Of a stretch of DNA of 64,000 bases, positions 5,450 to 64,000 are shown in pieces. Source of the DNA: Chiloscyllium plagiosum (Eukaryota). The notes below the pieces were generated by a model. That model was given only the letters and a program-made list of their open reading frames with translations, was not told the origin of the DNA and made no database searches. The stretch is taken from positions 24,519,593 through 24,583,592 of the forward strand of contig NC_057745.1 in assembly GCF_004010195.1 (NCBI RefSeq), given 5' to 3'. How positions within the stretch are numbered: the stretch's first letter is position 1; every line of letters starts with the position of its first letter. Position numbers and translations under genes: made by a program.

Positions 5450-5542
5450 TGGATTAGTGGTGCTGGAAGAGCACAGCAGTTCAGGCAGCATCCAAGGAGC
5501 TTCGAAATCGACGTTTCGGGCAAAAGAGTTTTTACCTCGTTG
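5450..5542 (-). mobile_element. Penelope-derived short repeat (family C), truncated in hammerhead loop II, with a small inverted end piece
   Basis: Matches the 18393 and 21950 repeats; TSD atttaa(t/c)tagttca at 5436-5449 and 5543-5556. Confidence 0.75.
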
Positions 5543-5604
5543 ATTTAACTAGTTCAGTCCACAGATGCGATAAGTTGTTCTGCTCCGATATCAAACTGTT
5601 AGGA

Positions 5605-5715
5605 GGTTCTTGTGGTGCAGTGGTAGCATCCCTACATCTGACCTAGGATGCCCAGATCAATGTCCCACATGCTCCAGAAGTGTATAATAACATTTCTGAA
5701 TTGGTTGATCAGGAA
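5605..5715 (+). mobile_element. Short tRNA-derived SINE; same family at ~40105-40220 and ~44930-45275
   Basis: gtggtgcagtggtag A box, degenerate B box, shared tail tgctccagag...tctgaacaggttgattag. Confidence 0.65.
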
Positions 5716-5856
5716 GAGCCAAGTCTGTCTCTCTGTCTCTCTCTCTCTCTCTAACTCTCTTCAAACCATTAGGCATAGATAAGATACTGGTTTAATAATC
5801 AAAGTTAACCTGATGGAGTCAAAATGTTCCTGTTTTGCTTTGTTTTTATGTTTTAC

Positions 5857-9295: not shown

Positions 9296-10755
9296 CTGCC
9301 ACAAGACCATGTACTTATTTTAAATTTGCTTTTCACTATTTTTAATTGCTGTTCTCCACTCCTACTTTCTTGTTTCCTGGATTATTCTGGATTTAATTAT
9401 ATCATTTAAAATCATAAATAACTGCACAGTCCTTCACAATTAACATGAATTTATCTTTCTTTTTGTCATAATTCACATCAGCTTCACATTTAATATGTTA
9501 CGTTGCTCTTCTCCGTGTTCTTTCCAAAGCATACATTGAATATCTTTTATGTGACATGGTATTCAGAACTGAACACTGTACTTCAGATGTGCCCTGATCA
9601 TTGTTAAACCTTACAGTGGATTTGCACTGCCCTTCAGTATTACTGCAAAGTGCTTTCCACTTTACATCAAAGCTAAAGATACAGTACAAAACTGAAGTAG
9701 AGCTTAATCACCAGTCAGGCAACATCAATGTGTGCCCCTTAGCTGGAAGTCATTTCACATTTTTCAAGTTTGGCATTGAATAGAATTGTGGTCCAATGTA
9801 ATGTTCATCTTGACTTAAGATGTATATATGACAGTGGTCCTTTGGTGCCAAGAACACCTTATAACAATCCAGAGTTGATGAAGAATTGTATGGCTCAGCC
9901 CTCAAATCTTGCCTATGTCCTGGCATATGCAAGGTCCCATATGGACAGAGAACTGGGACCTCCTAATGTTGAGAGATTCCATTCCTGCCAGCCTACCTCC
10001 CTCCCCAGTCCACCACAGCAGTTGTAGATTATAAAATAGGGGAGAGACTCAAACACTTACATGACTGAGTAGGAGTTTCTAGATCAGATTTGGAGTTAAT
10101 ATATCTTGATCTTGGTCTCATTCCAAAATATTGCCTTGGATTTCCTTTGGAATGTATTTAGTTCAGTGTGTTCATATCCATCTCCTCAAAACCTCAGCCA
10201 TTGTTACTTAATTGCCTTCAAAAATACAATTTCACAAATTTCTCCTCATTCTTCTTTAACATCCTCAAGTGTATCATATCAGGGCCACATCCAAAGTAAA
10301 TCATGCAACTTTGTGATCCTGGCCTTGACAATAGACAGTTTAAATCCTTTATTCTTTTGTGGAATGGAGGTGTCACTGGTAAGGCCAGTATTTGTTGCCT
10401 GTCCCTATCTGTCTTGACCTCAGTGGCTTTCTAGGCTATATCGGAGGGCAGTTCAGAGTCAAACACATTGCTGTGAACCTGTAGCCACATGTCCAGGAAA
10501 GATTTCCTTCCCTAAAGGACATTAGAATATTTTTTCACAATGTTATCAACATGCTTTCTAATGAATCCAATTATAGTATCTTCACTGACTATGTAGACTT
10601 TTCTTTTCTCTTTAACTTTTCCATCACTTTAAGAACTTCGAATTGACCTCCAACAACTTTAACTATTGAGATACTGAAGAACGTTTTTTGTGTAACTGAT
10701 CCATTTCATGAATCTTTTTGCTGCAAAACTACATTTCAAAACCTATTATAACTAA

Positions 10756-10970
10756 GTTAAAAATCACACAACACCAAGTTATAGTCCAACAGGTTTAATT
10801 GGAAGCACACTAGCTTTCGGAGCGACGCTCCTTCATCAGGTGATTGTGATGAAGGAGCGTCGCTCCGAAAGCTAGTGTGCTTCCAATTAAACCTGTTGGA
10901 CTATAACCTGGTGTTGTGTGATTTTTAACTTTGTACACCCCAGTCCAACACCGGCATCTCCGAATCATGA
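10756..10970. mobile_element. Penelope pseudo-LTR (pLTR) fold-back insertion (family A)
   Basis: ~85-bp arms (10754-10838 and 10847-10931, one mismatch) around an 8-nt loop; 13-bp TSD ctattataactaa (10743-10755 and 10971-10983); matches the leader of the Penelope ORF at 63717. Confidence 0.9.
10807..10842 (-). ncRNA. Minimal hammerhead ribozyme motif, intact core
   Basis: Minus strand CAC CUGAUGA A GGAGC GUC GCUCC GAA AGCU A/GUG: helix I CAC/GUG, 5-bp stem II, palindromic AGCU helix III. Confidence 0.8.
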
Positions 10971-11704
10971 CTATTATAACTAATTTATTTACCTTTTCCA
11001 AAGGCCCTCTTTCCTCATTTTTCAGGAGCTTTGAATTCATTTCTAATTTCATTTTAATTGACCTATTGTCATATTAAAAGAACAATTGTTTTATGATGTT
11101 TCATAACTTGCATTGTCTATTCAATAACTGAATTAAACTATATGTTATTTCACCTCAATACATATTCTGAGTTTATTTCTTTTTCAGATTGTAACTCATT
11201 TTAAAATCTTGTTTTTTTAATCTGTGAGCTATAGAATCTCGAATGATGTATGATGTTCTAAGAGGCAAAGGACCACCATTGTATATACATCTTAAATCAA
11301 GACAAACATCACACTGGACTTAGACTTTTCTTTTAATAATTTAGACGTTTTAAAAAATTTAAAATTAATCAAATTGTGGTTAGTAGTCCATAAAGGGTGT
11401 CACTATGACCATATCATGGATACAACTTTCTCCCTGTAGAGTTTTCAATACAATAATTTTTTTAAAAATCTGTCTTTGCATTCACTAGTTCGCATTCTGA
11501 TGTTTTACTTCGAATTGCCTTCCCAAATTATATTGAGTTGAATAAGATCACTTACTGGCATACCTTGCCATCTGTTCATTGTCTTCATGTTTGAAGAGAC
11601 TGAATATTGTTGTATTACTTATAACTCTTTATTCCTATCTACTTAGCTCCCCAATAAGAGCTTAGAGATTTTGGTTTTGCCTTAACGTACTGTCACAATC
11701 TTTC

Positions 11705-12000
11705 TTGCTGTGGTTTTGTGGGTAATGTGCTCTTCTCTTGGTCAGCGATTAGTTTATTCAATCCTGCTCCAAAGACAGGAGCACAAATCCATTTGGATAC
11801 CTCAGTGAGGTACACTGTTGGAGGTGTAATCTTTCAAATGAATATTGAACCTATTTGCCCTGCCAGGTGGTGAGCAGCAATGTTTTCCATGGTATCCCAG
11901 ACAGTATTTAAGCCTCAGTATGTAAGTCAACAACAGTCTGTCAAGTCACTATTTCATTGTAATTTCTGAGATCATGCTGTATACAATCTGACCTACCCCT
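11705..12000 (+). mobile_element. Old SacSINE1/DeuSINE-like SINE
   Basis: Degenerate Deu-domain-like text (cactgttggaggtg...tctttc...gccctgccaggtgg), recalled from the SacSINE1 consensus. Confidence 0.55.
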
Positions 12001-12687
12001 CCTCATATTTTTTATGTTCTTATTATGTATGTTATGTTTAGTATAAACCATTGAGGATATTTTCTTTCCGTTCTCTCACACATTTCCACACTCTCAGCTA
12101 AAGACTTCATCTGTCATAGCATAGAATTCCTTGGCATTTATTTCAAACAGTGCATTGTAGATTACATGTTAAAGGTTTATTCTTGCTGTAACTTTGCCAC
12201 AAATATCCCCAAGGAATGGAATACTGCTCGCTCAAATGTGTTGATTTCATGACCACCTCAGGACACACAGTGACAAACAACAGTAAAGGAAGATTCACAT
12301 GATTCTACTTAAGATCTGGAGCTAAGCTCAGAGCAAGGAGCACCAAGTTTAATGCAGATCACGAGTGAAGAAAAACACACACCAGTGGCAAAGAAACCTT
12401 TTCTAGAAGGTGATTTCACATGCAGGTCTTGCTGACTAATAAAGAATGTTGCTTTCAGAATGCCTCTAATTCATGCAAACATTTGAGAGAGTGCTTATTA
12501 TATTTTCTGGACTATCAATGGCTAAATCTCTTTAAAATAGACCCCAGCACGGGCATAAATGCTCTTTGAAAAATGCTGGAGCTATGGAGATGTTAGAGAT
12601 CGCTGTTCATAAATGTTTAATGTTTGGATACACTTTGCTGGGAAGTTGGTTGGACAGCATCCTGACACAGACCTTCACTTACCTTAC

Positions 12688-13190
12688 TGTGGTCGTTGCT
12701 CTTACAGTGGATTGAAAGTTATTGCCTAATGATGAGAGATGATCAGAATTACTCCAGGCCAGTTAGCTGGTGACTCTTCTTGGCATGCAGCTAGTCCAGT
12801 TGAAACTGATTAGCAGGTTTCAAGCACAGATCAGGTAAGGGTAATGTGTTGCAGACGTTTCGTCCCCTGTCTAGGTGAAATCCTCAGTGCTTGGGAGCCT
12901 CCTGTGAAGCACTTTTGTGATGTTTCCTCTGGCAGTTATAGTGATTTGTCTCTGCTGCATCCGGTTGAATGCCAGAGGAAACATCCCAGAAGCGCTTCAC
13001 AGGAGACTCCCAAGCACCGAGGATGTCATCTAGACAGGGGACGAAACGTCTGCAACACAAATTCCCAACTCGGCGAACAGAACCACAACAACAAGCACCC
13101 GAGCTACAAATCTTCTCACAAACATTGAAGGGTAATGCTGGTGCCAGAAGTTGCCTGCTGCCAGAGGTTTGGTAGAATTGTTCCTTTCAC
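12688..13190 (-). pseudogene. Pseudo-exon interrupted by the Penelope insertion at 12847-13127; coding-like sequence may continue to ~12150
   Basis: gattttgtag|GTG; VKGTILPNLWQQATSGTSITL[insert]T*SVLENLLISFNWTSCMPRR; frame is continuous once the insert and one TSD copy are removed. Confidence 0.6.
12847..13127. mobile_element. Penelope pLTR fold-back insertion (family B) with a hammerhead motif in each arm
   Basis: Inverted arms ~12845-12934 and 12970-13059; TSD aagggtaatg (12837-12846 and 13128-13137); arm consensus GCA CUGAGGA U GUCACCU AGAC AGGGGAC GAA ACGU C/UGC; both arms carry point changes. Confidence 0.85.
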
Positions 13191-18344: not shown

Positions 18345-18705
18345 GGGGAGGCTCGGCTATTAATCCAGAAACTCAGCTAATATTCTGTGGAGGTAAAAAC
18401 AATGACTGCAGATGCTGGAAACCAGATTCTGGATTAGTGGTGCTGGAAGAGCACAGCAATTCAGGCAGCATCCGAGGACAGGCAAACTCGGATGCTGCCT
18501 GAATTGCTGTGCTCTTCCAGCACCACTAATCCAGAATAATATTCTGTGGAGCCGGGTTCAAATCCCACCATGACAGCTCCTCCAAGATTGATACTCAACT
18601 ATCCTCTGAAATGACCTAGCAAGCCTTTCAGTTCAAGAGCAGCGAGGGAGGGGCAATAAATGCTGGCCAGCCAGCCGCGCCCATGTCCTATGAATGAACA
18701 AAAAA
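18345..18705 (+). mobile_element. tRNA-derived SINE with LINE-like tail (family of 57886-58225), host of the Penelope insert
   Basis: gggttcaaatccc B box; tail gggcaataaatgctggcc...tgaatgaa. Confidence 0.7.
18393..18536. mobile_element. Penelope-derived family C fold-back lacking the hammerhead core
   Basis: Perfect ~51-bp inverted arms around a ~10-nt loop; 15-bp TSD taatattctgtggag (18378-18392 and 18537-18551). Confidence 0.85.
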
Positions 18706-18788: not shown

Positions 18789-20551
18789 GAAAAGGTAGCA
18801 GTACTCCTACTGATGATGAGAAGGCCAGTTTTAAATCCTTCAATCATTTTTTTTTGCTTTCTGTGTTTATGTGTGCTGAAGTTCGCAATGATAACATCAT
18901 AGAATATTCCATGCCAACTTCAGCACACATAAACACAGAAAGCAGAAGATAATGACTGAAGTTAGCAGTCTATCAGCACATAGACAGTGAATGCATCTAA
19001 AATATAATTTCCAATTGTATTATGTATGTTGACAACCCAGAGCTAGCATGTGGCTTGCAACTCAGTCAGTTTCTACAAATGGAAGGAGAAGCTGAAAGGT
19101 TTATCTATGACATCTGTTAGACTATTGCTGGCTTACTTTCTGGAAAGTCCACATTACACTGAGGCAGTTGAATCACAAGAAAATCTTGGGGTGGATGGGG
19201 AAGTGTGGCTTTTCAGGAATTCACCACCTCTGTCCCTTCAACAAGAACATTGATGCAACACAGATTAGGGGTAAAGAGAGAGCAACAATGTATCATAATC
19301 ACAATTTGCTCTCATTGTACATACACAATGAATACTATCAAGGTTACGAACATTGTGTTATGTACTTATGCTGATGAGCTGCACCTTATTATGTAATTAA
19401 ACTCCAGTGCAGCCTATAAAATGGATGCTGGAAGTATTAATAACAAAATGATTTATTTACTTCAGTTTGCAGACAGTAATAGGTGTCAATGCAATCGCCA
19501 TCAGAGATATTTGAAGCAAGTCTGGACTCAGGATGAAGATCATCCTAACACTTCCTTCCACTTCACCTTTTCTTATGGCCTGTCTGGCTCTGGATCCTCT
19601 TTTCCAAATCTGTTGTTATAATAATCTACATATTGCATTATCTACACTATTAGCCTGAATCAATTCAATGTATTAGGCACTCCTCCAACAGTCAACATTC
19701 TTTTAATAATCCAAAGCTCTACTCCATTTTATTTTTTCTCCTTCAGTGGTATGATCAAAATCTCTCATAAGAGGGGTGAGTGCTGGTTTTGGCAGTCCAT
19801 TGTGCAATCAGTCTTCATTCCAGAATAGTTATTAAATTCCTGACACCATACAAAATGAACATGTCAAAGCTATTGCCTGAAAGCACATATTCATATGTTT
19901 CTACTCAATGTACATAAGCAAGCATCAGTATTTTTCTATTCACCAAATACATGGAATTGATGTTTTGCTCACAGAGAGCTACAAGAGTATCGTTGTCACA
20001 CTTGAATAAAATGTATCTGCTTCTGCAACTCTTGTTGCATGACGTTTCTGAACTGCCACCATATGAAATGTCATTACCCCTAATCTGTGTTGCATCAATG
20101 TTCTTGTTGAAGGGACAGAGGTGGTGAATTCCTGAAAAGCCACACTTCCCCATCCACCCCAAGACTTCCTTGTGATTCAACTGCCTCAGTGTAATGTGGA
20201 TTTTCCAGAAAGTAAGCCAGCAATAGTCTAACAGATGTCATAGATAAACCTTTCAGCTTCTCCCTCCATTTATAGAAACTGACTGAATTGCAAGCCACAT
20301 GCTAGCTCTGGGTTGTCAACATACATAATATAACTGGAAATTATATTTTAGATGCATTCACTGCCTATGTGTTGATAGACTGCTAACTTCAGTCATTACT
20401 TTCTGCTTTCTGTGTTTATGTGTTGGCATAGAATATTCTATGATGTTATCATTGCGAACTTCAGCACACATAAACACAGAAAGCAAAAAATAATGATTGA
20501 GGGATTTAAAACTGGCCTTCTCAACATCAGTAAGAGTACAGCTACCTTTTC
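18789..20551. repeat. Long inverted repeat: arms 18789-19274 and 20074-20551, ~800-bp spacer
   Basis: Arms are near-identical reverse complements; the ORF track shows twin peptides at 19050(+) and 20298(-). Confidence 0.95.
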
Positions 20552-21281: not shown

Positions 21282-21423
21282 CTTGTTGTTAAAACCTTAG
21301 GTGAAAAATCAGACTTTTGTTTCTTATCCTCGGAAATCTCATTTGTCCAATCCCACCACATTTTCCCAGTTGACTCACCATTGAGAAAGTTCAGCCTACT
21401 GTCATTTCCCTTCTTTCTTTACT
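21282..21423 (-). pseudogene. Pseudo-exon (142 nt, phase 1-2)
   Basis: ctcaaccatag|AG; *RKKGNDSRLNFLNGESTGKMWWDWTNEISEDKKQKSDFSPKVLTT; AG|gtaaga. Confidence 0.7.
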
Positions 21424-21949
21424 CTATGGTTGAGACAGGGTAGAATGTATAGCAAGTGGACCATGCAATGCCACCTAAGATGAAGTCTTAACTCATTATT
21501 TTCAACTGGCTGGATGTTTCTTTTTTCCTTGAAACAAGGCAAGAAGATTGTCAAGGGTATCTGCATTCCTCAGAATTACAACATGGATCACAATATACTC
21601 CATCACCCACTTTACCAGAAATTATAATGGCCCTGCAATAAGTACTGCAGAAGATAAAGTAAGCTTAATGAGGGTAAGTAATTGATCATGAGGAAAGAGA
21701 AAAAAAAGATGGGAAAAAGGGCAAAATTTTACAATCAAAAGGTCAAAATATCCCTAATTATTACAGGCTGAGGAGTGAGCTGCAGTTAGGCCTGCAGGGA
21801 CTCGGGAGTGGTGGTAAGTCAGTCATGGAACTGCATAAAGATCAGTCAGGAGTCTGGGCACTCTCTAGTCAGAGCTGTCCTTCCAAATTAGTGAGGGGGT
21901 GGGTGCCCTGAAAGTCGACATGAGTTAGTAGGGATCACTACTGTGCTTG

Positions 21950-22078
21950 GAGGAGAAAGTGAGGGCTGCAGATGCTGGAGATCAGAGCTGAAAATGTGTT
22001 GCTGGAAAAGCACAGCAGGTCAGGCAGCATCCAAGGAAGAGGAGAATCGACGTTTCGGGCATAAGCCCTTCTTCAGGA
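21950..22078 (-). mobile_element. Penelope-derived family C repeat with an intact hammerhead motif
   Basis: 16-bp TSD atcactactgtgcttg (21934-21949 and 22079-22094); minus strand UC CUGAAGA A GGGC UUAU GCCC GAA ACGU C/GA. Confidence 0.88.
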
Positions 22079-22424
22079 ATCACTACTGTGCTTGACAGTT
22101 TAGGAAGTAAATTGGAGGCAGCATATTGGGACATAGAGGGGATAATAATTGTGATGGAAAGACAAGCCAACTCATAAGGATGATCATGCTTTGGAGGGAA
22201 TGAGAGACTATGGAGTGGAGGTGGATCATCAATGGTTGCTACCACCCTGATTTTGATGGGAGAACAGTGCGACATGAGGGTCGGTGTGACTAAGCTGTAG
22301 GCTCAGGGCTCAAGGCTAATGTTCAGAGATGAAGAATTGAAAAAATATATTTGGATGGGAATGTGTGGAAGCTCATAACTTTTTATGTCAAGGACAAAAG
22401 GAAGGTGAAGATTTGAGCAGTCAC

Positions 22425-22538
22425 CTTCTTTAGTAGACTGGGCCTGCTGCTCAATCCACAATGTATGATCAGTATTACCTTCTATTTTTATCCAAATCAC
22501 AAATGCACAATGTAAATGAGAAATGGGTGCTACCACAC
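22425..22538 (-). pseudogene. Pseudo-exon (needs a 1-nt frameshift)
   Basis: tctgtccatgccag|G; CGSTHFSFTLCICDLDK / EGNTDHTLWIEQQAQSTKE; G|gtgact. Confidence 0.5.
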
Positions 22539-42408: not shown

Positions 42409-42409
42409 C

Positions 42410-42665
42410 AAAGGTCTGAGGTGATGAGGTTCTGTATGGTCTGGGAGATGATGGTTTGGTGATGAGGGGTGGGGTCATGATCGAGGGGGTGGTAGGAAAA
42501 GGTGTCCTCGAGTTGGCGTTTGGCTTCAGTGGTGTAGAGCTGAAAATGTGTTGCTGGAAAAACGCAGCAGGTCAGGCAGCATCCAAGGAACAGGAGAATC
42601 GCCGTTTCGGGCATAAGCCCTTCTTCAGTGGTGTAGAGGTCAGTGCACCAGACCCTGTCTATATG
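42410..42665 (-). mobile_element. Penelope-like RT ORF fragment containing a nested family C repeat (42540-42622)
   Basis: VWCTDLYTTE[insert]AKRQLEDTFSYHPLDHDPTPHHQTIISQTI; 16-bp TSD cttcagtggtgtagag (42524-42539 and 42623-42638). Confidence 0.8.
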
Positions 42666-44725: not shown

Positions 44726-45024
44726 ATTTACAGGCAATGGCTTGGGAATCACAGCTTCAAAAGATTCCAAACTGCTTGATGAAACTTAAAGTTGATCATG
44801 AAAAAGAGCTTGAACAAATCAATGTTAAACAAGAATTGGCGTTTCCTTACCAGCTCAAAGATACTACTAATCTAAATGCTCAGCTTCTAGTCACCACTCA
44901 ACAAAATCAAGCATTGGAAATTGTGACTCTTGTGTTGCAGTGACATTTTCACCTATCTCTAAGCCAAGAGACCCAGGTTCAAGTCCCACCTGCTCCAGAG
45001 GTATGCAATACTATCTTTGAACAG

Positions 45025-45241
45025 TAGAATTAAAACAAAGAACTGCAAACGTTGAATATCTGAAACAGAAATCTCAGTAGTTCTAGCAGGATCTGTGGAG
45101 AGAAAGCAGCATTAACATTTTGAGTCCAGTGACCCGTCTTCAGAAATGAAGGCTACTGGACTCAAAACATTAACTTTGCTTTCTTTCTTCCCACAGATGC
45201 TACCAGAACTGTTGAGTTTCTCCAGCAATTTCTGTTTTTGC
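45025..45241. mobile_element. Older Penelope-derived fold-back (family D) inside a short SINE
   Basis: Inverted arms; minus strand CUGAAGA C GGGUC ACUG GACUC AAAA UGUU (CpG-decayed hammerhead); TSD tac(t/c)atctttgaacag (45009-45024 and 45242-45257). Confidence 0.75.
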
Positions 45242-45527
45242 TACCATCTTTGAACAGGTTGATTAGGAAAATATTAAAACATTAGAGACTGAAAACTAAA
45301 AGGTCACAGACGATTTTCAAATATACTGTGCAGAGACAACTGGCATGCTCATACATTTGACATATCAAAGTACAGGTAATCTTGACTTGCGAATGATCAT
45401 ATTTATGAATGAGATTTCATATTACTATTAATTCTAAGGATCTGACTTGCAAACATTTGCTTGTACTTACGAATAGTTACTTTATATTCTACTGTATTGT
45501 GTTCCAACTTATTACAAATTGACTTAC

Positions 45528-49234: not shown

Positions 49235-51090
49235 GAGAGTGACAGAGAGACTTGGAAGATGCAGAACGTGGGGAAATAAATAGTGGTATCTTAAAAAATG
49301 TCCATGTTATAGAGCAGGAGCTACTGGATAACTTCAAGTGTACAAAGGTAGATAAATCCCAGGGACCTGATCAGGTATACCCTTGAACTCTGTGGGAAGC
49401 TAGGGGAGTGATTGCTGAGCCTCTTGCTGAGGCATCTGAAATATCAATAGCCACACGTTAGGTGCTGGAAGTCTGGAGGTTGGCTAATGTGGTGCCAGTA
49501 TTTAAGAAAGGGGTAAGGAAAAGGCAAGAAACTATAGACCAGGGGGTGAGCCTGACATCGGTGGTGGGCAAATTGTTGGAGGGAATCCAGAGGGATAGGA
49601 TTTACATGCATTTGGAAAGGCAAGGACTGATTAAGGATAATCAACATGGCTTTGTGTGTGTGGGAAATTGTGTCTCACTAAATTGAGGTTTTTGAAGAAG
49701 TAAAGAAGAGGATTGATGAGAGCAGAGCGATAGACATGATCTAAACAGACTTCAGTAAAGAGCGATAGACATGATCTAAACAGACTTCAGTAAGGTTCCT
49801 TATGGTAGACTGGTTAGCAAGGTAAGGTCTCATGGAATACAGGGAGACTCGCTATTTGGATACAGAACTGGTTCAAAGGTGGAAGACAGAGGATGGTAGT
49901 GGAGGGTTGCCTTTCAGACTGGAGGCCTGTGACCAGTGGTATGCCACAAGGATCGGTGCTGGGTCCACTACTTTTCGTCATTTATATAAATGATTTGGAT
50001 GTTAACACAGGAGGCATGCTTAATAAATTTGCAGATCACACCAAAATTGGAAGTGTCGTGGACAGTGAAGAAGATTACCTCGAGTACAATGGAATCTTGA
50101 TCAGATCAGCCAATGTGCTGAAGAGTGGCAGATGGAGTTTAATTTCGATAAAGGTGGGGTGCTGAATTTTGGAAAGGCAAATCAGGATAGGACTTATACA
50201 CTGAATGGTAAGGTCCAGGGAAGTATTGCTGAACAAAGAGGCCTCGGAGTGCAGGTTCATAGTTTCTTGAAAGTGGAGTTGCAGGTAGATAGGTAGGATA
50301 AGGCATTTGGTATGCTTTCTTTTATTGGTCAGTGTATTTAATATAGGAGTTGGGAGATCATGTTGCAGTTGTACAGGGCATTGGTAAAGCCACTTTTGGA
50401 ATACTGCATGCAAATCTGGTCTCCCTCCTTGAGGAAGGATGTTGTGAAAGGGATCAGAAAAGATTTACAAGGATTTTGCCAGGGTTAGAGGGTTTGAGCT
50501 TTAGGGAGAGGCTGAATAGGCTGGGGTATTTTCTCTGGAGTGATTGATGCTGAGGGGTGACTTTATAGAAGTTTATAAGATCATGAGGAACATGGATAGG
50601 GTAAATAGACAAAGCCTTTTCCCTGGGGTGGGGGAATCCAAAATTAGAGGGCATAGATTTAAGGTAAGAGTGGAAAGATATGAAAGGCACCTAAGTGGCA
50701 ATGTTTTCAAGCAAAGCTTGGTGCGCGTTTGGAATGAGTCACCAGAGGAAATGGTGGAGGCTGGTTTAATATATTGCTTCAGTTACATGACACTGTAATC
50801 TTTTACTATAAATTCTGTCTCTTATGATCCTGCTGCACAGCTACCTGATGAAAGAACAGTGCTCTGAAAGCCAATGCTTCCAAATAAACCTGTTGGACTA
50901 TAACCTGGTGTTGTGTGATTTGTAACATTTAAAAGGCATCCGGATGGGTACATAAATAGGAAGATTTTAAAGGGATATGGACCAAATGCTGGCAAATGAG
51001 ACTAGATTACTCTAGGGTATCTGGGTCAGCATGGATGAGTTGGAGCGAAGGGCCTGTACCTGTGCTATCTAACTCAGTGACTGTATGACT
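49235..51090 (+). mobile_element. CR1 ORF2 fragment with a Penelope family A insert (~50765-50925)
   Basis: [27 protein letters not shown] motifs; the insert contains cctgatga...gaaagc and aacctgttggactataacctgg. Confidence 0.9.
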
Positions 51091-51169: not shown

Positions 51170-52600
51170 GTTGCTTGGCAGTTTTCTTTCAGTCCAATGG
51201 TGTCATCTTGTCTTATAAAAATATCCAACCCAGTTCTCCAGATGTTACATGCCCTTAAGAAACCAATAAATCAATGCTGCACAGTTGCACGTTTTCTTTG
51301 AGTTGTAAAAAATATCCAGTAATTCAATCTTCCACTTTTAAGATCTGACTGTAACTTTGGTAACACTGAACCTGCTTTCTAAGCATCAGTTAAAGAAGAC
51401 ATGCGTTTTTGAATTGCCCCATCCATTACAGGGACTGAAACATCTGCTACACTATTACTTTTGACCTCTGTTGATGCATTTTGCTGAGTCATTGCTATGG
51501 CCACCACATGCAATGGAAAAATACCTAGAACTTGTTCTTTTAACTGTTCCATCTCTTTAACTTACTTGGACTTCCTCTGATTATAGGTGAAGCTACAGCT
51601 TTTACTCCAGTCAAATCATTACCTATGATATGTCAACTCTGCCCATGGGCAATTTCTGAACCACTCCTACTTCCACTGTTCCAGATAGCAAGTCACATCC
51701 TAAGTGGCCTTTGTACAAAGAAAAGGGTATATATTCTTCACTTATCCAATTTATTAAACTTCATCTTTCAAAGTTTTCTCTGGAGGAAAATCTGTGTCAT
51801 TCTCCAGCAAATGAGTTTGAGTAGCTCTTGTATCACTTAATATCGTCATGTGCCATTTGAAGAAAAATAGGTTACCTTTCCTTTCAAAAAAATGCTTTGC
51901 ACCTTTCATCTAATTTATCAATCTGTCCTTCACTCACAGTAGCATAGTTGTAATTAAAGTTACAATTTGATCCATTACAATTCCTTTTGAATTCTTTTTT
52001 CAGCTTCATTCTTATGAGTGGACAGCCTTTGGTGACTGTCTGTGTGGAGTTTGCAATTTCTCTCTGTGTCTCTGCAGGTTTCCTCCCACAATCCAAAGAT
52101 GTGTAGCCAGGTGAATTGGCCATGCTAAATTGCCCATTGTGTTCAGGGATGCGTAGGTTAAGTGTATTAATCAGGGGTAAATGCAGAATAATGGTAATAG
52201 GTTTGGCTGGGATACTGGTCAGTGTGGACTTGTTGGGCTTTAGGGATTCTACTCCATAACCCCAATATATTTCATGGGCTTCCCTCATAGTTTCCAGCAT
52301 ACTGAACCAATGTATTTCACTTTGTTAAAAATCAGAATAGTGAAGCCTATGATTTTCACTTTCACCCTCAGCACATTCCTTGCTGGATAAGTAAACAGTG
52401 GAACATTCCCAGTTGTCCCTCCTCTACCCTGGCTTCTTGCCTCCTTTTCATTCTCCCCACCTTCAATCTTTTTTGAGCTTATAGGATGACAGAAAAAAAT
52501 GTTTAATTTCCTGGATCAGCTGATAATTGTCAGCCATTCCTTTTGCCTGTCTCGGAGTTGCAGCATCCTGGCCTTCAATGAGATAAATATTCATGTTTGA
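51170..52600 (-). mobile_element. Gmr1-like Ty3/Gypsy gag-protease relic, split by an HE1-like SINE (~52030-52250, +)
   Basis: Degenerate DTRATQTHLL (cf. DTGATQSLL), GVVQKLPMGRVD..GNDLTG (cf. LLGNDLAG) and MADNYQL motifs. Confidence 0.6.
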
Positions 52601-52671: not shown

Positions 52672-52972
52672 CTTGTGCAGAAAGAGCTATGTCTCGAGGA
52701 CATCAGGTGACATGAAATGGGAGTTCTGAGGAAGGGTCACTTAACCCAAAACATTAACTCTGAATTCTCTCCACAGATGCTGCCAGGCCTGCTCAGCTTT
52801 TCCAACAATTTCTGTTTCTGTACATGAAACTGGAGCCTGAGGGTGTAGAGCTCCAGAAGATGTCCTTTGTTATAATTCCTTGTATTGAGTTATGGTAATA
52901 AAGCCCATTAATGTTCACTCGCCTGATTGCAGAGCTCATCTTACTACAGTTGCAAATATTTTGGAGCACAAC
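52672..52972 (-). pseudogene. Pseudo-exon interrupted by a Penelope family D repeat (52724-52821)
   Basis: ttgcatttag|VVLQNICNCSKMSSAIRRVNINGLYYHNSIQGIITKDIFWSSTPSGSSFM[insert]SPDVLET*LFLHK|gtcagt; 189 nt after removing the insert and one TSD copy (acatgaaa..ggag, 52710-52723 and 52822-52835). Confidence 0.75.
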
Positions 52973-53474
52973 CTAAATGCAATTAAGTGTACAGAGTAGG
53001 AATTGAGCTTGAATCAAATGGCTGAGGAAGGTTATTGTTGAACAGTGTGCATATTTTCCGAAGCAACATTTTAGCTGACATCGTCCCTTTGGCTTAAATA
53101 TTTTCCTGACCTACTTGCTTCAAAGTGTTTTCCTGAAACAGACCATTAGAATCATAGAATTTTACAGTGTAGAAGGAGGCCATTCAACGCATCATGTCTG
53201 TACCAGCTCCTGAATGAGCTACCTAGCTAGGCCCATTCTAAAGCCCTACCTAGCTAGGCCCATTCTAAAGCCCTATCACCGTAGCCCTCAAAATTAATGA
53301 TATTCAAGAAACCTGAAACCTCATATGGAATCCACCTGCTCCACTTTCACAGGTAAGCACATTCTACATTCTGACAACTTTCTGAGTAAAGAAATTTACC
53401 CTCATTCAACTCTTTGCTCTCTTGTTCAGACAGTGCTCTGAAAGAAGCTGAAAAGAAATGCTTATCCAATATGA

Positions 53475-56400
53475 ATAGAGTCATAGAGTCAAAGAGTCAT
53501 ACAGCTTGGAAACAGACCCTTCGGTCCAACTCATTTACTACATTGTCTGTGTTTGGCCCATATCCTTCTAAATTTTTCCTATCCATATACCCGTTCAAAT
53601 GTCTTTTAAATTAAATTGTAAGCATGTCTATCACTTCCTCTGGCAGCTCATTCCATATACACACCACCCTTTATGTGAAAAAGTTGCCCCTTAGGTCTTT
53701 TTAAAATGTTTCCTCTCTCACTTTAAACCTATGTCCTCAAGCTTTTGACTCCCCTATCCTCGGGAAAAGGTCTTGGCAATTTAACTTATCTATGCCCCTC
53801 ATGATTATATAAACCTCTATAAGGTCCCGTCAGCCTCCTATACTCCAAGTTTGGTGACATCTGCAAACTTACTTGTCACGCCTCCTGTATTCTCATCCAA
53901 ATCATTTATATATGACAGTAGATCCAGCACCGATCCATGTGACACACCACTGGTCACTGGTCTTCAGTCTGAACAACAACCCCCTGTTTCCTACCTTCAA
54001 GCCAATTATGTATCCACCAGTCTCTGTAATATGCTTCTAAATCTTTTTTACACTCTTTCCAGTTTAAAAACAACCTTTCCATACAGGGCAACCAGAATTG
54101 TATGCAGCATTCCAAAGGTGGCCTAACCAATTTCTTGTGCAGCCATAACATGCCAATACTCAATGCTCTGACTGGTGAAGGAAAGTGTTCTAAAGGCCTT
54201 CTTTGCAGTCCTGTCTACCTGTGACACCACTTTCAAGAAACTCTGTACCTGCAAACCTGTTCAACAACACTCCCCAGGGCCCTACCATTAACTATATAAG
54301 TCTTGTCTTGGTTTGTTTTACCAAAATGCAACACCTTGTATTTATTTGAATTAAACTCCACCCACCATCCCTCAGCCCATTGGCCCAGTTGATTAAGATC
54401 CTATTGTACTCTTAGATAACCTTCTTCACTGTCCATTTTACCACCAATGTTGGTATCATCCACAAACTTATTAACCATGGCTCCTATCTTCTCACCCAAA
54501 TCCTTTGTGTAAATGATGAACAACTGTGGACTCAGCACTGATATATTTGGCACACTGCGGTCACAGGCCTTCAGGCAGAACAACAACTCTAACACCACTT
54601 CCTGTATCCTACTGTCAAGCCAATTTTGTATCCAATTGGCTAGCTCTCCCTGGATCTCATTTGCTCTAAGCTTACTGATGGATTTGATTTATTGTCACGT
54701 GTACCTAAGAATAATGAAAAGCTTTATTTATGAGCAGTACAGACAGATCATAGTCAGCAAAGGCATTCAGATCATAAGGTGGTTAAAAAAAGCTAGGACA
54801 GAGGCATACAGGTTATAATGCACAGGGTGTGCACTAGGCAAGATCAACATTAGCAAGATCAACATTAGTTGAATTTAGAGAATCCATTCATCAGTCTAAT
54901 ATCGGCAGGAAAGAAGCTATTCTTGAACCTGCTGATCGTGTGTCCAAGCTTTGGCATCTTTCACCTGACAGAAGAGGTTGTAGGAGAGTATTACCAACAT
55001 GGGATGGGTCTTTGATGATGTTGGCAGCCTTTTTGTGGCAACAAGAAGTATAAATGGAATCCATGGATGGAAGGTTGGCTTCTGTGATGGTCTGGGCCAT
55101 ACACACAATCTTCTGTAGTTTCCTATAGAGCAGTTGCCATACCAAGCCGCTATGCACCTAGATAGTATGCTTTCTGTGGTGCATCTGCAGAAGTTAGTGA
55201 GGGCCCTTGTGGACATGCCAAATTTCCTGAGCCTCTTGAGGATGAAGAGGTGTTGTTGTGTCTTCTTGACCATCGCATGTATATGGGAAATCCAGGACAG
55301 GTTCTCATCACTCGGAGGAACTTGACACTCCCAACTCTCTCAACCTCAGCTCTGTTGATGTAGTTGGAGGTGTGTTCTCCTCCTTTCTTTCTGAAGTCAA
55401 TGATCAGTTCTGTAGTTTTGCCGAAGTTGAGAGAGAGTTTGTTCTCATTGCACCACGTCATCAAGCCCTCTATCTTCTTTCTGTATTCTGCCTCATCGTT
55501 GTTTGAAATCCATCCTACCATAGTGGTGTCATCAGTAAATTTGCAGATGATGTTCATTTGAAATTAGCAACACAGTCGTGAATATACAGGGAGTTCAGTA
55601 GGGGATTGAGAATGTATCCTCGGGGGGATCCAGTTTTGGGTGTTTTCGTGGATGACGTGCTGTTGTCTATCTTCACTGATTGTGGTCTGTCAGTCAGGAA
55701 GCTGAGGATTCAGTTTCAGAGGGCGGAATTGGCACCTAGGTCTTGGAGTTTTGAGGTCAGTCTGGAGGGGATAATGGTGTTCAAGGCAGAGCTGTAGTTG
55801 ATGAGCTCGTCTGACATAGTCTAACCAGGCTACCATGAGGAACCATGTCGCAAACTTTGCTGATGTACATGTCAACTATGTCTACCACTCTGCCTTCATC
55901 TAAACTTTCGGTCACCTCTTTAAAAAACTCATTGGGCTCACCGGTCTGTAATTCCCTGGCTTTTCCTTGCAGCCTTTCTGAAATAATGGCACAACATTAG
56001 CTGCCAACATTATCTAGTCTTCTGCATCTCATCTGTGACTGTTGATAGTACAAAGATCTGTTAGAGGCCTTGTAATTTCTTCCCTAGCTACCCACAATGT
56101 CCTTGGATACACTTAACTAAGTACCAGGAATTTATCAACCTTTATGCATTTTAAAACTTCCAGCACCTATTTTCAAGACATCTTTCTTTATTTTCCGAGT
56201 TCTCTAGCTTCCATGTGTTTCTCCACAACAAATACTGAGTGAAATATTCGTTTAGGACCTCACCCATCTCCTATGGTTCCACACATATATGGCCTTGTAG
56301 ATCTTTAAGGGGCCCCAAACTCTCCTTAGTTACTTTTGATATACTTGTAGAATCTCTATGGATAATCTTTAATCTTATCTGCCAAAGCTATCTCATGTCC

Positions 56401-58798: not shown

Positions 58799-61372
58799 GT
58801 TGACTTTTCCAGCGTGGTTTTGTTGACAGTATCTTTTATAACACAACTCTTGAAGTTTGATTTTGACTGCTCCACCTGTTTCCATAATTGCTCCCTGGGC
58901 CAGTTAAGCTGATTTCATCCTTCAGTTGGAAAGATTTTTCCATTCTAACCTGCTGAAGGAGAGTCATGGAAACCAATAACTTATCTCACAGTCACTCACC
59001 TATCCATCCACCTCTTCCAACTCCTATCATCTCTAGTCTCCTTTACACACAGACCGCAGCTGACACAGAACCTTTTTTTTAGACAGTTGATTATGAAGCT
59101 CTGGCCACACGGTAATCTATTAAAGATGAACTTTAATTATAAAAGATATATTTCAGCTCTTCTAATCTTGATGCTGTAAAAAAGGCTTGCTGTGGGATGT
59201 TTATATTTTCCTTCAGTTCAAGATTTTGGTGTCTGGAAGTATTTCTCAACCATAAACAGTTTTAAAAATAAATGTTTTTTAACATTAAATGCTAACTTAA
59301 CAGTGCTCCTTCATTCTCTACATACTATCTTCTTGAATGAAATCACTGGAAACATAATAACAATTATAGAGTAATTATTTTCTTCATGGTTGCTTACAGA
59401 TACACAATGAGACCATTCACTTCCTTGTCCAGATTCTATAATCTACACATCACACTATGTATGACCAATTCATCAGAAGACACTAATTTAGTAATATGTG
59501 CGACTCCTCAATCTAATTTTGTGAATTTTATTGCAAATAAAGAACAAGAATTTACTGTGAATGAAACCTGTAGTGTATGGATTGATATTCCAATTCAGCT
59601 GCTGTACTAATATAATTGACTTCACCCGATGAAGAGGCAGCTCTTCAAAAGCTTGTGATTTCAAATAACCTGTTGGACTATAACCTGGTGTTGTGTGACT
59701 TTTGACCTTGTCCACACTAGTCAAACACCAGCACCTCCACATCATGATATAATTTCCAGTATAACTATTTAATCTTTGGACTATTTGGCTTGCTCGCTAT
59801 AATACACAAAGGAGCAAACAGACAAGAGAAAGGCTGTAAAAATACAATCACAACTGAACATCCTTTCATCATGATATGTTTCAGGATATTATGATGATTA
59901 TAGTGTAGCTATAATTACAAAGTAAATCTCCAGCATTTTCTTTTCAATAATCACTTTCCCACTACAAAGTGACTAAAGAGAAAAGTTATTGACGTGTAAA
60001 ATTTTACAAGAAGGTGATCAATGGGTAGCACCAAAAATATTTTTGAAAACCCACACTGAGACTTAAATAATAACAGTTATGATGTATAAATAAAATGTTC
60101 ATTCTCATTGCTTTCACAAATCATATTATCCTTCCTTGATGCTCCAGGACTGCATAGCAGCCATCCACACTAATTAAACCCTGCAGTGCACATATTCCTT
60201 TATCAAAGGCTGTTTATACTTTCATTCTGAATTCTCCTAAACATATATATAATTCACTGGTTCCTTTATCTTCCTTTTAACTGAGCGCTGCATTTTTGTC
60301 AATAACTGTTGTCATTCATTTAGGAAAGAAAATTGGCTTCATCTGAGGTCTCTATCAGAGTTCCAACAAATCAGGTTAATTGGCGATCAACAGCATCTTT
60401 CTCTCTTTAATGAGGCAGTGTAGCCCAAGGCAAAAGACCCATCCCATGATGAGAGACATTCCTCTCTCCTTCTCCAGCTCTTTGATCACTTCTGGTATGA
60501 GACAACAGTAGGGAATAGCATTGTTTTTAATTGCCTTATTACTAAGTGGACAATATCGGTACTAATAATTAATAATTTTTTCATATAGGTTATTACCACA
60601 AGACTGATTAGAATCCAGCAACTCCTGTTTTTACATTAGACCTTAAATTTTGAATGGATTGGTAATTAAACCTGTTTTTAGAATGTTTCTAAAATGTAAA
60701 TCCATTCCATGACAATGTATGTGCACGTGTTGCATGAGGAGAAATACTAATGTTCTCCTTCATTCTCTAAAAAATTAATTACTGAATTACAGAAGACCAA
60801 AACAACTAATGCCAAAAATTACTGAAATTATATAAATATGTATATATAGCCCTGATATGATACGCTCTATATATATTGCCCTGACGTTACCACTGACAAT
60901 ATGGACAAATGCTTAGCATGTTCTCATAACATTTCTTACCATTTTAACAATTGAAGTTAACCCATTAATTTAAAGTTACCACTTCAGCTCAAAATAATGG
61001 TAAAGGAATGCTGTGTGAAGTTATTAACCTGCTAATATTGTGAATATAAATGTTTGAAAATGTCACTGTTTTGGCCATTTGATCAGAGCTGGAAAGTGAC
61101 AGATGTCTCTTCTATGTGGCAAAATGAAGGGCAGCAGAAAAAAGGGTTGTCTAGGAGACACTTGAATGACAGATGCCACCATGTGATTGCAGACAAGCTG
61201 CAGTGGATGTCTGAGGATGACATAAGACAGATGAATGTGGCATACCCTGACAGACGTTTCCCTTCTTGGATTTGCTACAAGCAACAGCAGCAATTTTTGA
61301 TTGCATTTCTTTTCGTGTTCAAGTCTTCAAGTTGCAGTTCAATGTGATCTCAACAGTACAGATTTGGCAATT
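58799..61372 (-). pseudogene. Three candidate upstream pseudo-exons (58799-58949, ~60350-60491, 61246-~61372)
   Basis: NGKIFPTEG*NQLNWPREQLWKQVEQSK; VIKELEKERGMSLIMGWVFCLGLHCLIKERKMLLIAN*PDLLEL; *DHIELQLEDLNTKRNAIKNC...*QIQEGKRLS; splice sites partly visible but the phase chain is not closed. Confidence 0.45.
59618..59746 (+). mobile_element. Penelope family A pLTR copy with a decayed hammerhead
   Basis: cacccgatgaag...aaaagcttgtg; ends at catcatg; TSD atataatt (59610-59617 and 59747-59754). Confidence 0.75.
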
Positions 61373-62960
61373 CTTGGAAGGTGATCATCACCTCTCCGTT
61401 CGTTAAAACATTTGAAAGGATGGCTGTGATTGGCCTTCTTGAACTACTTGAAAGTCCATGTGGTGTAAATACTGCAACTGTGGTCATGGAATCATAGAGA
61501 TGTACAACACGGAAACGGACCCTTCGGTCCAACTCGTCCATGCCAACCACATATCCTAACCTAATCCCGTCCCATTTACCAGCACTTGGTCCATATCTCA
61601 CTAAACTCTTCCTATTCATACACCCATTCAGATGCCTTTTAAATGTTGTAACTGTACCAGCCTCAACCACTTCCTTTGGCAGTTCATTCCCTACATGCAC
61701 CACACTTTGTGTGAAAAGGTTGCTCCTTAAGTCCCCTCTAAATTTTTCCCCTCTCATCTTAAACCTATGCCCTCTAGTCTGGAATCCCCCAACCCAAGGA
61801 AAAGACCTTGTCTATTTACATTACCCATGCCCCTCAAGATTTTATACACCTCTATAAGATCACGTCTCAGCCTCTGACACTCCAGGGAGATTTGTTGGAG
61901 GGAGTTCCAGGACTTTGAACCAGAGATAGCAAAGGGGTGATGGTGTGTGATTTGGGGAGGAGAATTTGCAGCCAGTAGTGTCCCATGTTTCTACATCCCT
62001 TGTTGTTTTATTGGTGAAGATCATGAGTTTGGAATGTGCTGTCAGAGGAGCCTTGGCAAATTATTGCCATGCATTTTGCAGATGATATTCATTGCAGCCA
62101 CATACACCTTTGGTGGATGGAGGAAATGCTTCAGGTGGTGGAGGCTTCTCCCTTGCAGATGACAAAAAATCTTTGGGGAGACCAGAGATGAGTAATATTA
62201 CTGCAAAGTTACTGACCTCATTAATCCCAGTATTTACATGCCTTGTCAAGTAAAGTTTTAAGTCAACAGCAACTGCCAAAACGTTGATGATGGACTATTA
62301 AGTGATGGTTACTCCATTGAATATCAAGGGTAGAAGGTTAACCTCTCTCTTGTTGGAGAAGCACATTGCCTTGTGCAGATGTTATTTGCCACTGATCACT
62401 TCAGGCCTGAATATATGTTCCTTACACACAGTCATGGACTATTTCATAAATTGAGATTTGTGAAAATAACTGAATAATGGGTAATTATTAGTGAGCATTC
62501 CCAGTTATGGCCTTGTTTTGGAGGAAGGGACATTTATGAAACAGCTGAAGATGTTTAGTTCTATATGACATGAACTAAGGAGTGCCTGAAGTTATGTCCA
62601 GGGACTGATACAATTGCTCTCCAACAATTACAGTCATTTTCCTTTGCGGCTCAATATGACTCCAATCACTTGATAGCTTTCCTCTGATTCCTTACTGATT
62701 TTCAATTGCTGGGGCTCCTTGATACCAGACTTGGTCAAATGCTACCCTGATGATCAGGATTGTCACTGTCACCACTACAGTTCAGCTCTCCTGCATGTAT
62801 TTACACCAGGGCTGTAATGAGTAAGTGACACTTGACAGTGCTGTCAATAATACCTTCAATCACGCTGCTAATGATTGATAGTAGACTGGTGGGTTAGTGA
62901 TTAGTTGGATCAGACTAATCCTACTTTTTGTGGACAGCACATACCTAGGAAAATTTCCAC
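61365..62960 (-). mobile_element. Old LINE with a nested CR1 3' fragment (61488-61888)
   Basis: The CR1 piece reads RGEKFRGDLRSNLFTQSVV; the host resembles ~4450-4760. Confidence 0.65.
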
Positions 62961-63594
62961 TTTTTCTCAAAGATACTAGTGTTGTGGCTATGCTATAACT
63001 ACTACTTCCACCAATTTTTGTTGTATCAATCCTTGAAGAAATTTACTAATAAGGTATGTGTTTTGACTATATTTATTTTTAGACCAAATGACTATTAAAC
63101 ACTCCTTGCAACCTAAATAATAGATAATCGATGTTGGTTCAGGTCCTGCATAACTGCTGAGTTAAATGAAAAATGTACAGATGTAAAATTGGATTAATAT
63201 GTTTTGCTTAATAAATTTCCATGTTTACCATGACTCATATTAAAAACACTTCATTGAGCATGTTTATGGTCGTTTTTGTTGTTTATGTTTATGTTTTGTT
63301 GTGTTGTTTCATTTAAGTTTGCATCTACTTTTTAAAAACTTAATGCGCCCATTCTGATGATCAGCAATGTCTCCCTTATCAACATGGCCACCTTGTCGCA
63401 TCCATAGAATAGAAATAACTCACAGGTGTCCGTATCCCTATAAAAAACCCATTATTTCACCAAAATGAGATAAATTGAAATAAAGATTCCCTCTAATGTT
63501 AAGTTTTATCAAGTGGTACATGTACAGAATCCCCCAAAAATTATACATTGAGGATAAATTTCCTCAGTAATCCAGGATGTTACCATATACTACT

Positions 63595-64000
63595 CCATGG
63601 ATGAAGGAGCAGCGCTCCAAAAGTTAGTGCTTCTAATTAAACTTGTTAGCCCATAACCTGGTGTTGTGTGATTTTTAACTTTGTACTTCCCAGTCCAACA
63701 CCGGCACCTCCAAATCATGACTACCATCGACGCCACTAACTGCCGGCTTAAAGTGGAGAGGATCTCCAAGAAGATCGCACATATAGACACAGACATCAAG
63801 TTTCTACAGAAATGCAGGCAAGCCGGAAAGATCCCAAAAGGATTACAGATCACGAACCCGCTCAAATCGACCTATAACAGACTACGCAGAGAAACTTTGC
63901 CACCGCATCTCACGCAAACTCCTCAATCATTTTGTGCACCAACTCTACAGCAGGTGCCACAACCTTGATATTCAGATGGAGTCCACACTCTCAGCCTGCG
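63595..64000 (+). mobile_element. Penelope-like element 5' end (pLTR + ORF start at 63717), running off the window
   Basis: Family A pLTR followed by MTTIDATNCRLKVERISKKIAHIDTDIKFLQKCRQAGKIPKGL, a PLE-type N-terminal FL..C....IPKGL pattern; frame is lost near 63880. Confidence 0.8.

Follow-up and report, generated by a model that had tools for sequence, protein, structure and literature searches.

Short inserted repeats with minimal hammerhead ribozymes in Chiloscyllium plagiosum are very probably 3' ends of several Penelope-like element families

The window analysed here is a 64,000-nt stretch of Chiloscyllium plagiosum DNA. A first-pass annotation had placed about eleven short repeat insertions in it and sorted them into families A, B, C and D; all 11 are present, with positions that are exact or off by no more than a few bases, and self-BLAST recovered the same grouping. 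The insertions consist of 15 repeat arms, ~14 to ~160 nt long, and five of the 11 (5450, 10755, 12847, 18393 and 45025) are head-to-head inverted pairs. BLAST searches with 8 arms as queries found no further copies in the window. The description as short units holds for most insertions and fails for 63595, which extends into the ORF of a Penelope-like element (PLE) up to the window end. Families C and D are related through a common 33-nt block (BLAST, E 4e-5), and family C is divided into two subfamilies (21950/42540 and 5450/18393).

The inverted family A insertion at ~10755-10970 (10743..10982) has an arm without tail (10755-10848, minus strand) and an arm (10847-10970, plus strand) with a ~36-nt tail that runs up to the ATG of the ORF. 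An intact minimal hammerhead lies at 10808..10842 (minus strand) and is made up of a 3-bp stem I, CUGAUGA, an extra A, a 5-bp stem II opened by G10.1-C11.1, GAA, and an AGCU palindrome; its predicted cut falls between 10811 and 10810 on the same strand. The poly(A) region follows at 10799..10779 (minus strand), with AUUAAA at 10799-10794, addition points at 10782 and 10779, and then a GU/U-rich stretch. An older family A arm sits inside a CR1 fragment (50766..50925, plus strand), with ~79 nt 5' of the core and an altered U16.1. The arm at 59618-59746 (59608..59754, plus strand) has a decayed core and a tail up to the ATG, while 63595..64000 (plus strand) is a family A pseudo-LTR (pLTR) joined to a PLE ORF, with a decayed core at 63598, an ATG at 63717, a frameshift near 63878, and a reading frame open to the window end. 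The family B inverted insertion at 12847-13127 (12837..13137) pairs an arm at 12847-12970 (minus strand) with one at 12970-13127 (plus strand) whose 3' end is 68 nt longer. It is also found in organisms B and C, and each arm has a single private core or stem change.

Two family C copies had been called core-deficient, and both belong to subfamily 2. In the 5450-5542 insertion (5436..5556) the main arm (5450-5527, minus strand) is cut inside stem II and has no CUGANGA, and the second piece (5529-5542, plus strand) is a ~14-nt inverted fragment of the tail end; in the inverted insertion 18393-18536 (18378..18551) the arms start 3' of the core, so that no ribozyme is present, and a ~35-nt tail is found on the left arm only. 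The tailed copy at 21950-22078 (21934..22094, minus strand) retains an intact core at 22076 with a 4-bp stem II, ACGU and a GUC triplet, preceded by only 2 element bases. The copy at 42540-42622 (42524..42638, minus strand) has no tail and an altered U16.1, and a copy of its target-site duplication (TSD) provides the first core letters by microhomology. It splits, in the same orientation, a ~150-bp PLE ORF fragment located just after the DKG motif (42411..42652, minus strand), with 85-90% identity to three Chiloscyllium punctatum proteins, two of them with RVT_1. This reverse transcriptase (RT) fragment is the target of the insertion and no ORF link for family C. Family D comprises an inverted insertion at 45025-45241 (45009..45257), with a tailed arm at ~45030-45145 (minus strand), an untailed arm at ~45146-45241 (plus strand) and decayed cores, and an arm at 52718-52821 (52710..52829, plus strand), also with a decayed core.

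The repeats had been described as TSD-flanked. Among 10 testable insertions (63595 was left out) this is clear for seven, with variable lengths of 10-16 bp as in PLEs: 5450 (5436-5449/5543-5556, 13/14 bp), 10755 (10743-10754/10971-10982, 12 bp), 12847 (10 bp), 18393 (15 bp), 21950 (16 bp), 42540 (16 bp) and 45025 (15/16 bp). The flanking repeat is fair at 59618 (8 bp exact, 9/10 overall), weak at 52718 (8 bp), and absent at 50766, where ~6-8 target bases are lost relative to four other CR1 copies. With fixed boundaries, repeats of at least 10 bp occurred at 1 of 391 random sites and of at least 8 bp at 32 of 391, a null to be read with the fact that some insertion boundaries were chosen with the TSD in view; a loose search gave at least 14 bp at 2 of 291. 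A contig of organism B (record 17) has the empty site and omits exactly 228 bp (10757-10984), which confirms the 10755 insertion.

The shared core of CUGANGA, stem II, GAA and palindrome proposed for all families is complete in only 2 of 15 arms (10839 and 22076, both on the minus strand) and defective in the other 13. These two arms carry every part of the PLE-type motif (CUGANGA, one extra base, a stem II opened by G-C, GAA, the palindrome and UH), and the earlier assignment to minimal type I hammerheads with palindromic helix III is supported. Helix I is 2-3 bp long and there is no helix III stem. Majority letters of family B in sequencing reads give a complete minimal hammerhead; they restore G10.1 and U4, so the defects of the B copy in the window are private. 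Family D occurs in decayed form only, and all three D arms lack G12 and the ACGU palindrome, losses consistent with CpG decay. Relative to the young family A arm, CpG sites differ at 8 of 18 positions, against 31 of 230 elsewhere. An RNA run (X21, poly(A)-selected, 2% of reads taken) had no pile-up of read ends at the predicted cut, although a library of this kind would not retain a 3' product of ~30 nt. Cofolding two copies of four arms did not predict the active dimer fold as the lowest in energy, the helix being too short for this to inform.

Tails are ~35-38 nt long in families A, C and D and 68 nt in B, and four of the five inverted insertions have two long arms with the tail on a single arm. 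Inverted truncated copies with a one-sided tail of 30-40 bp are a described PLE feature (PMC8557442, PMC3846280). The inverted family A pair (10751-10934) is predicted to fold as one long hairpin of -158.9 kcal/mol. Since the two arms of a pair are on opposite strands, we rejected the idea that the inverted pairs are ribozyme dimers.

The link to a PLE ORF comes from family A, whose arms at 10970 and 59746 end on the same ATG as the 63717 ORF, 119 nt 3' of the core. The peptide of 63717-63878 was matched by 12 of 13 candidates at E<=1e-3 with 72-87% identity, the named matches all being from sharks (75-87% for the shark proteins related to P0017), and it aligns from residue 1 to P0017 (52%, E 3e-16). 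P0017 has 881 aa with RVT_1, a DKG-like motif, a C-x4-C-x2-C linker, and a C-terminus judged by eye to be CCHH and GIY-YIG-like; Pfam gave no GIY-YIG match for P0017 itself and assigned the domain to the more distant relatives P0107 and P0100. The family A pLTR adjoins an ORF whose RT and endonuclease lie beyond the window and are seen only in relatives. The CX2-5CxxC linker of the Neptune clade is present in P0017 and not visible within the window. A structure search found no solved structure for P0007. Neptune-clade PLEs were reportedly treated by Arkhipova in 2006. P0017 resembles Neptune in its DKG-like motif, RT, linker and CCHH endonuclease (Craig et al., 2021, PMC8557442); the linker also occurs in Nematis, and the placement of family A is from features, not from a tree. 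For family B, a reading frame gave no homologue in the protein search and no Atlas lead. With no ORF link obtained for B, C and D, their PLE assignment rests on architecture. Pattern scans for the repeats gave 0 hits in viral contigs and 0 in GTDB genomes, and searching viral contigs for PLE proteins likewise gave 0; 48 metagenome and 4 viral candidate loci were dropped (match to the window of 25-30 nt at most, no PLE protein). None of these collections yielded shark DNA.

Family A junctions cluster at 10929-10934 in three DNA runs and also at 10968 in two of the three, with unrelated, AT-rich flanks. They match the two RT start sites and AT-rich targets of the Poseidon element PAc of Anolis (Frangieh et al., 2024, PMC11167929), which likewise has two 3' ends one tail apart, a hammerhead near the pLTR-ORF junction, and a cut site where RNA-seq reads do not end. 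The PAc ORF begins at stem II, with reverse transcription starting 111-118 nt into it, whereas the family A ATG lies 3' of the core and coincides with the distal 3' end. In one RNA run, poly(A) addition at 10782 and 10779 was seen in 480 and 390 of 2777 reads, which come from family A copies genome-wide and not from the 10755 locus; the used site is ~30 nt after the predicted cut. Such transcripts end before both 3' junction sites and thus cannot template insertions. RNA reads extend upstream of 10848 with common sequence. For 20600-24000 no RNA run was listed, which argues neither for nor against transcription. A transcript start deduced from a 16-nt median overhang past 10848 was rejected, the overhang being the remainder of a 150-nt read after a 67-nt poly(T) end.

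We concluded that the repeats are very probably the 3' ends (pLTR, with tail or none) of several endonuclease-bearing PLE families, with A probably of Neptune type, and the insertions are best read as 5'-truncated PLEs rather than retrozymes. Support comes from their structure, the TSDs, one empty site, the two-tier 3' ends and the ORF link for A; varying lengths and 5' ends are as expected for truncated insertions. As extrapolated from PAc, the RT/GIY-YIG protein of the element would place nicks in the two strands of AT-rich DNA at a spacing of 10-16 bp, and cDNA would start within the RNA at either of two sites located immediately 3' of the hammerhead and separated by ~35 nt. Most cDNA would end after 50-160 nt, and where both nicked strands prime, two short cDNAs could join head-to-head, which would leave an inverted pair tailed on a single side. 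Because only 50-130 nt separate it from the RT start, the hammerhead would be carried along. It is presumably retained at family level for a function in the full element, probably through protein-assisted or dimeric cleavage, and it decays after insertion, so most copies here are dead.

Minimal hammerheads in the pLTRs of metazoan PLEs were described in 2014 (Cervera and De la Pena, 2014, PMC4209133). The repeats share with them CUGANGA, one extra base, G10.1-C11.1, palindromic 15.2-16.2 and a short helix I, as well as several sequence families per genome, mostly lone motifs from truncated PLEs, opposite-strand pairs, and thousands of copies per fish or amphibian genome. Stem II is 4-6 bp here compared with 7-8 bp in Schistosoma (PMC4209133), and supplement file 2 of that paper has no shark, Callorhinchus or Leucoraja entry. 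Neptune-clade PLEs show the same 5' truncation, inverted pLTRs, one-sided 30-40 bp tail and variable TSD (PMC8557442), from which the 68-nt family B extension differs.

It is unlikely that some families are instead non-autonomous mini-elements derived from PLEs, SINE-like and fixed in length, that are self-transcribed and moved in trans by a PLE protein. Trans-mobilisation by pLTRs and non-autonomous PLEs has been published (PMC3846280, PMC8557442), and copy abundance is very high, with 60,000-93,000 contigs matching a 3-kb stretch that contains families A and B, in agreement with the earlier term abundant. In ~8 of 15 arms, as read off the arm alignment, the 5' end lies at most 10 nt from the first C of the core, which suggests a clustering tighter than plain random truncation; read depth at some inverted joints is 445-1670 versus ~15 for single-copy DNA (run X5) and may reflect secondary amplification. 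Against a fixed, self-transcribed unit, however, are the varying arm lengths, the continuation of family A into the 63717 ORF, the RNA reads upstream of 10848, the drop in family B depth in the bin 5' of the ribozyme, as for 5' truncation, and the poly(A)-ended A transcripts that stop short of both junction sites. Within the PLE reading, some short units may have been independently re-amplified.

The first-pass annotation had regarded the repeats as retrozyme-like units. Non-LTR retrozymes, in which tandem hammerhead repeats are cut to monomers, circularised and reinserted, are also short, non-coding and pLTR-related and carry a type I hammerhead (Cervera and De la Pena, 2020, PMC7229834; Li et al., 2026, 10.64898/2026.07.22.740005), and Li et al. 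report them in one chondrichthyan genome; a unit size of 85-290 bp would fit them as well. They are defined by circular RNA and by head-to-tail tandems in which two or more ribozymes are complete (same sources), while the window has no tandem array with a period >35 bp and no head-to-tail tandem with two complete hammerheads, so the defining feature fails. The paired copies are inverted and hairpin-forming, the ribozymes are minimal rather than canonical (6-bp helix I, loop 1-loop 2 contact) and mostly defective, and family A continues into a PLE ORF of autonomous type. The RNA run X21 gave no begin/end pile-up. We gave up this interpretation as highly improbable. On circular RNA, no backward joint was found among 15 joints listed (710 more unlisted) in one poly(A)-selected run with 2% read. 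Least credible of all is a chance likeness within ordinary SINE/LINE debris, for which one could cite that Rfam (window, E<=10) gave no hammerhead family among 16 matches, all under gathering score, with the miRNA-like ones reflecting only the inverted hairpins, that most arms fail the strict descriptor, and that predicted free folds of six monomers reach stem II at best and never the full active fold, but against which stand the two strict descriptor matches versus a mean of 0.025 over 40 block-shuffled windows (six with one core mismatch, four within repeats and two unrelated, versus a mean of 0.95 and a maximum of 3), four distinct stem II sequences, each of which in the best copies is base-paired and begins with G-C, two-sided changes in 3 pairs among five family A arms (a small set; 11 of 500 shuffles equally high), and a location in the element as in published PLE hammerheads.

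The ribozymes belong to a class known since 2014, and what is added is more shark PLE families. The insertions also illustrate cleanly, at the genomic level, the priming from two starts and on two strands that in vitro work had led others to propose. A minor further point, open to checking, is the poly(A) site of the family A pLTR. Since transcripts that stop at this site contain no RT start site, insertions can be seeded by read-through RNA only, and this requirement would explain the need of PLEs for partial tandems. A more speculative and unlikely extension is that the family A pLTR acts as a coupled switch of hammerhead, poly(A) site and RT starts, with remnants serving as host poly(A) sites clipped in trans and short units re-amplifying themselves. 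If so, a dimer- or protein-dependent hammerhead would precede a functional Pol II poly(A) site by ~30 nt, and this site would itself lie upstream of both RT start sites; host and read-through transcripts would be polyadenylated at many thousands of dispersed remnants, the PLE protein could separate such transcripts from their tails in trans, and some short or inverted units with 5' ends at the ribozyme would multiply anew as a separate non-autonomous lineage. Large-scale termination of host transcripts by the remnants, if it occurs, would be of consequence for the annotation of shark genes and for poly(A) sites derived from transposons.

The short insertions of the window are real, mostly decayed hammerheads (predicted ribozymes) from the pseudo-LTRs (pLTRs) of Penelope-like elements (PLEs). 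The first-pass annotation had listed about eleven of them in sequence families A to D. All 11 were recovered, and a BLAST search using 8 arms (strand-specific repeat copies) turned up no others. Five (5450, 10755, 12847, 18393, 45025) are head-to-head inversions, which brings the total to 15 arms. The insertions had been described as TSD-flanked, and this stood clearly for seven of the 10 testable ones (10-16 bp) and fairly at 59618, but the TSD is weak at 52718 and absent at 50766; the insertion at 63595 is untestable and lies outside the 10. At fixed boundaries at least 10 bp was duplicated in 1 of 391 sites, a null that flatters the TSD result since some boundaries were picked with a TSD in view. 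Independent support for the TSD at 10755 comes from a 4885-nt contig of organism B (DNA run X9), which joins 10450-10756 to 10985-12874 unbroken and skips 228 bp, the TSD offset. The family B insertion (12847) also occurs in organisms B and C. One arm is 3'-longer in each of the four two-armed inversions (by 36-38 nt in A, ~35 in C and D, and 68 in B), and such one-sided tails on inverted copies are described for PLEs in parts of PMC8557442 and PMC3846280.

Both strands were scanned with a minimal-hammerhead descriptor that required CUGANGA, a stem II of 4 bp or more, GAA, the palindrome and UH. In its strict form it gave two matches, 10839(-) and 22076(-), where 40 dinucleotide shuffles averaged 0.025; allowing a single core mismatch raised the count to six (four in these repeats, two unrelated), with 0.95 as the mean of the shuffles. 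The core proposed to be shared across families is complete in those two arms, but the other arms are damaged: each family B arm has one private change, arms 42628 and 50845 have lost U16.1, arms 59626 and 63598 several core bases, and G12 and the palindrome are gone from each of the three D arms. The C arms at 5450 and 18393 are without the core; the annotation had noted two C copies lacking all or part of it. Compared with the young A arm, the old A arms are changed at 8 of 18 CpG positions and 31 of 230 others, a CpG excess as for neutral decay. Majority letters over family B reads and contigs restore G10.1 (12879) and U4 (13018), so that the core is kept by the family and lost by single copies. 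Among five A arms three pairs show two-sided change, which is suggestive only (equally high in 11 of 500 shuffles). No hammerhead family of Rfam matched at E<=10. Hammerhead-like cores fitting the family C pattern also occur in viral contigs L049-L052 (around 3000), which are unrelated to PLEs; a real helix III is present in at least L052.

The A copy at 63595 continues into an ATG at 63717; of 13 candidate proteins compared with the 54-aa product, 12 matched it, with 72-87% identity. The matched proteins contain the PLE motifs GLNFCPT, KPADKGG, LPKIHK and GTAMG. A search with one homologue, P0003, led to P0017 (881 aa, 56% identity), whose alignment with the window peptide begins at residue 1 and continues beyond a frameshift near 63878. 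P0017 carries RVT_1 (Pfam), and reading by eye shows a C-x4-C-x2-C linker and, at the end, a GIY-YIG-like part with the CCHH pattern; a Pfam score for GIY-YIG was obtained only for more distant matches (P0107 above the cut-off, P0100 below). According to part of Craig et al. (2021; PMC8557442), a cysteine linker marks Neptune or Nematis PLEs. The A arms 10970 and 59746 stop at the ATG equivalent to 63717. Two shark gene models (P0002, P0010) have the family A ORF start fused to a chitinase-like or immunoglobulin-domain gene, the result either of faulty annotation or of exonisation of PLE pieces. For families B, C and D no ORF link was obtained in protein homology and sequence-collection searches, and they are assigned to PLEs on architecture. 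The C copy at 42540 is inserted, in the same orientation and with microhomology at both junctions, in an isolated fragment of another PLE ORF (42411-42652, minus strand; ~150 bp, internal RT part) that abuts CR1 sequence.

The window is non-coding (39% GC) with much CR1-type LINE debris, and named protein matches come from sharks (Heptranchias, Mustelus and, at 85-90% identity, Chiloscyllium punctatum), which points to a host close to the bamboo sharks. A near-complete CR1-type LINE (34300-37743, minus strand) includes an open stretch of 634 aa (35080-36981) that covers the endonuclease and the beginning of the RT, is preceded by an ORF1 weakly matching GDSL esterase, and contains an N gap at 34981-35078. 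The LINE RT fragment at 54920-55563 (minus strand) looks unlike the CR1 copies by eye and has no Pfam match. An inverted repeat (18789-20551; 489 bp, 94% identical arms, 793-bp spacer) encloses a smaller hairpin at 18858-18941, shows no obvious TSD, holds two ORFs without a Pfam match, and is possibly a non-autonomous DNA transposon or fold-back duplication. Several copies of a dispersed SINE-like family lie in both orientations (24170-24512, 25887-27058, 52025-52146), with no tRNA gene called. Units of 35 bp (49724-49793) and 27 bp (53219-53275) each occur as two perfect copies in tandem.

In about 2% of the poly(A) single-cell run X21, all 2777 matching reads fell on the repeats, leaving the flanks uncovered; being mostly 90-99% alike, they derive from other copies. 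Poly(T) precedes 10779 in 480 reads and 10782 in 390, 12-15 nt after AUUAAA (10799-10794, minus strand) and ahead of a GU-rich stretch, and A(A/U)UAAA is kept in three of four A insertions. True polyadenylation is most likely, since the template is not A-rich and these positions are absent from the DNA junctions listed; PCR duplicates and few source loci are possible. Counted from the predicted cut, the site comes 28-31 nt later, and both 3' junction tiers lie downstream of it. Read-length arithmetic suggests that the 710 reads extending upstream of 10848 are the same poly(T) reads, spanning the cut site uncleaved, and no pile-up of read begins or ends was listed in this 2%. Family B reads are mostly ribozyme-sense (about 5-7 to 1), provided that the first mate is antisense. 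A poly(A) site may be known for Drosophila Penelope. Our literature search, which included parts of PMC6765202 and PMC2377424 and few subscription papers, found no description of a pLTR poly(A) site.

Among the top 24 of about 1900 loose ends, three DNA runs show family A junctions by the hundreds, flanked by unrelated AT-rich sequence, that concentrate at 10929-10934; two of the three runs have a second cluster at 10968. Between 60,320 and 93,424 contigs matched in each run, and the depth summed across A and B exceeded that of the flanks 10^4- to 10^5-fold, which is not a copy number. Frangieh et al. (2024; PMC11167929, in part) demonstrated that a PLE protein nicks AT-rich DNA on both strands and extends each of them, with cDNA beginning inside the RNA at two sites separated by one tail. 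Two-strand nicking with two RT starts would account for the single short arms, tailed or tailless, as well as for inverted pairs whose 3' ends both face out and of which one bears the tail. We infer that the two cDNAs would be joined head-to-head. Its closeness to the RT start would explain why the hammerhead is copied along. Fixed-length mini-element units or re-amplification, instead of plain truncation, are quite unlikely, even though about 8 of 15 arms (e.g., 22078, 42628, 45145, 10848, 59618, 52718) have their 5' ends no more than 10 nt from the first C of the core, joints in the sequencing runs also end at 10841-10844, and a few inverted joints reach depths of 445-1670 in DNA run X5. Candidate causes of the 5'-end clustering are a start site, splice site or RT stall. 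The earlier reading as retrozyme-like units is not supported, as retrozymes need head-to-tail tandems of complete ribozymes and the window has none.

RNA across an inverted pair (10751-10934) is computed to form a single hairpin (-158.9 kcal/mol), which rules out such pairs as active dimers; the published ribozyme role in the full element is weak, dimeric or protein-assisted cleavage (parts of PMC11167929, Frangieh et al., 2024, among sources). The motif is as in the PLE hammerheads of Cervera and De la Pena (2014; PMC4209133), which by that account fall into numerous families within one genome and occur both singly, left by truncated PLEs, and as pairs on opposite strands. A literature search for hammerhead, Penelope-like and shark returned only a review, and the one supplement file searched from the 2014 paper has no shark row. 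The motif class itself was already described in that paper; shark families A to D may be previously unlisted, but the retrozyme survey of Li et al. (2026; 10.64898/2026.07.22.740005, in part) does take in one chondrichthyan.
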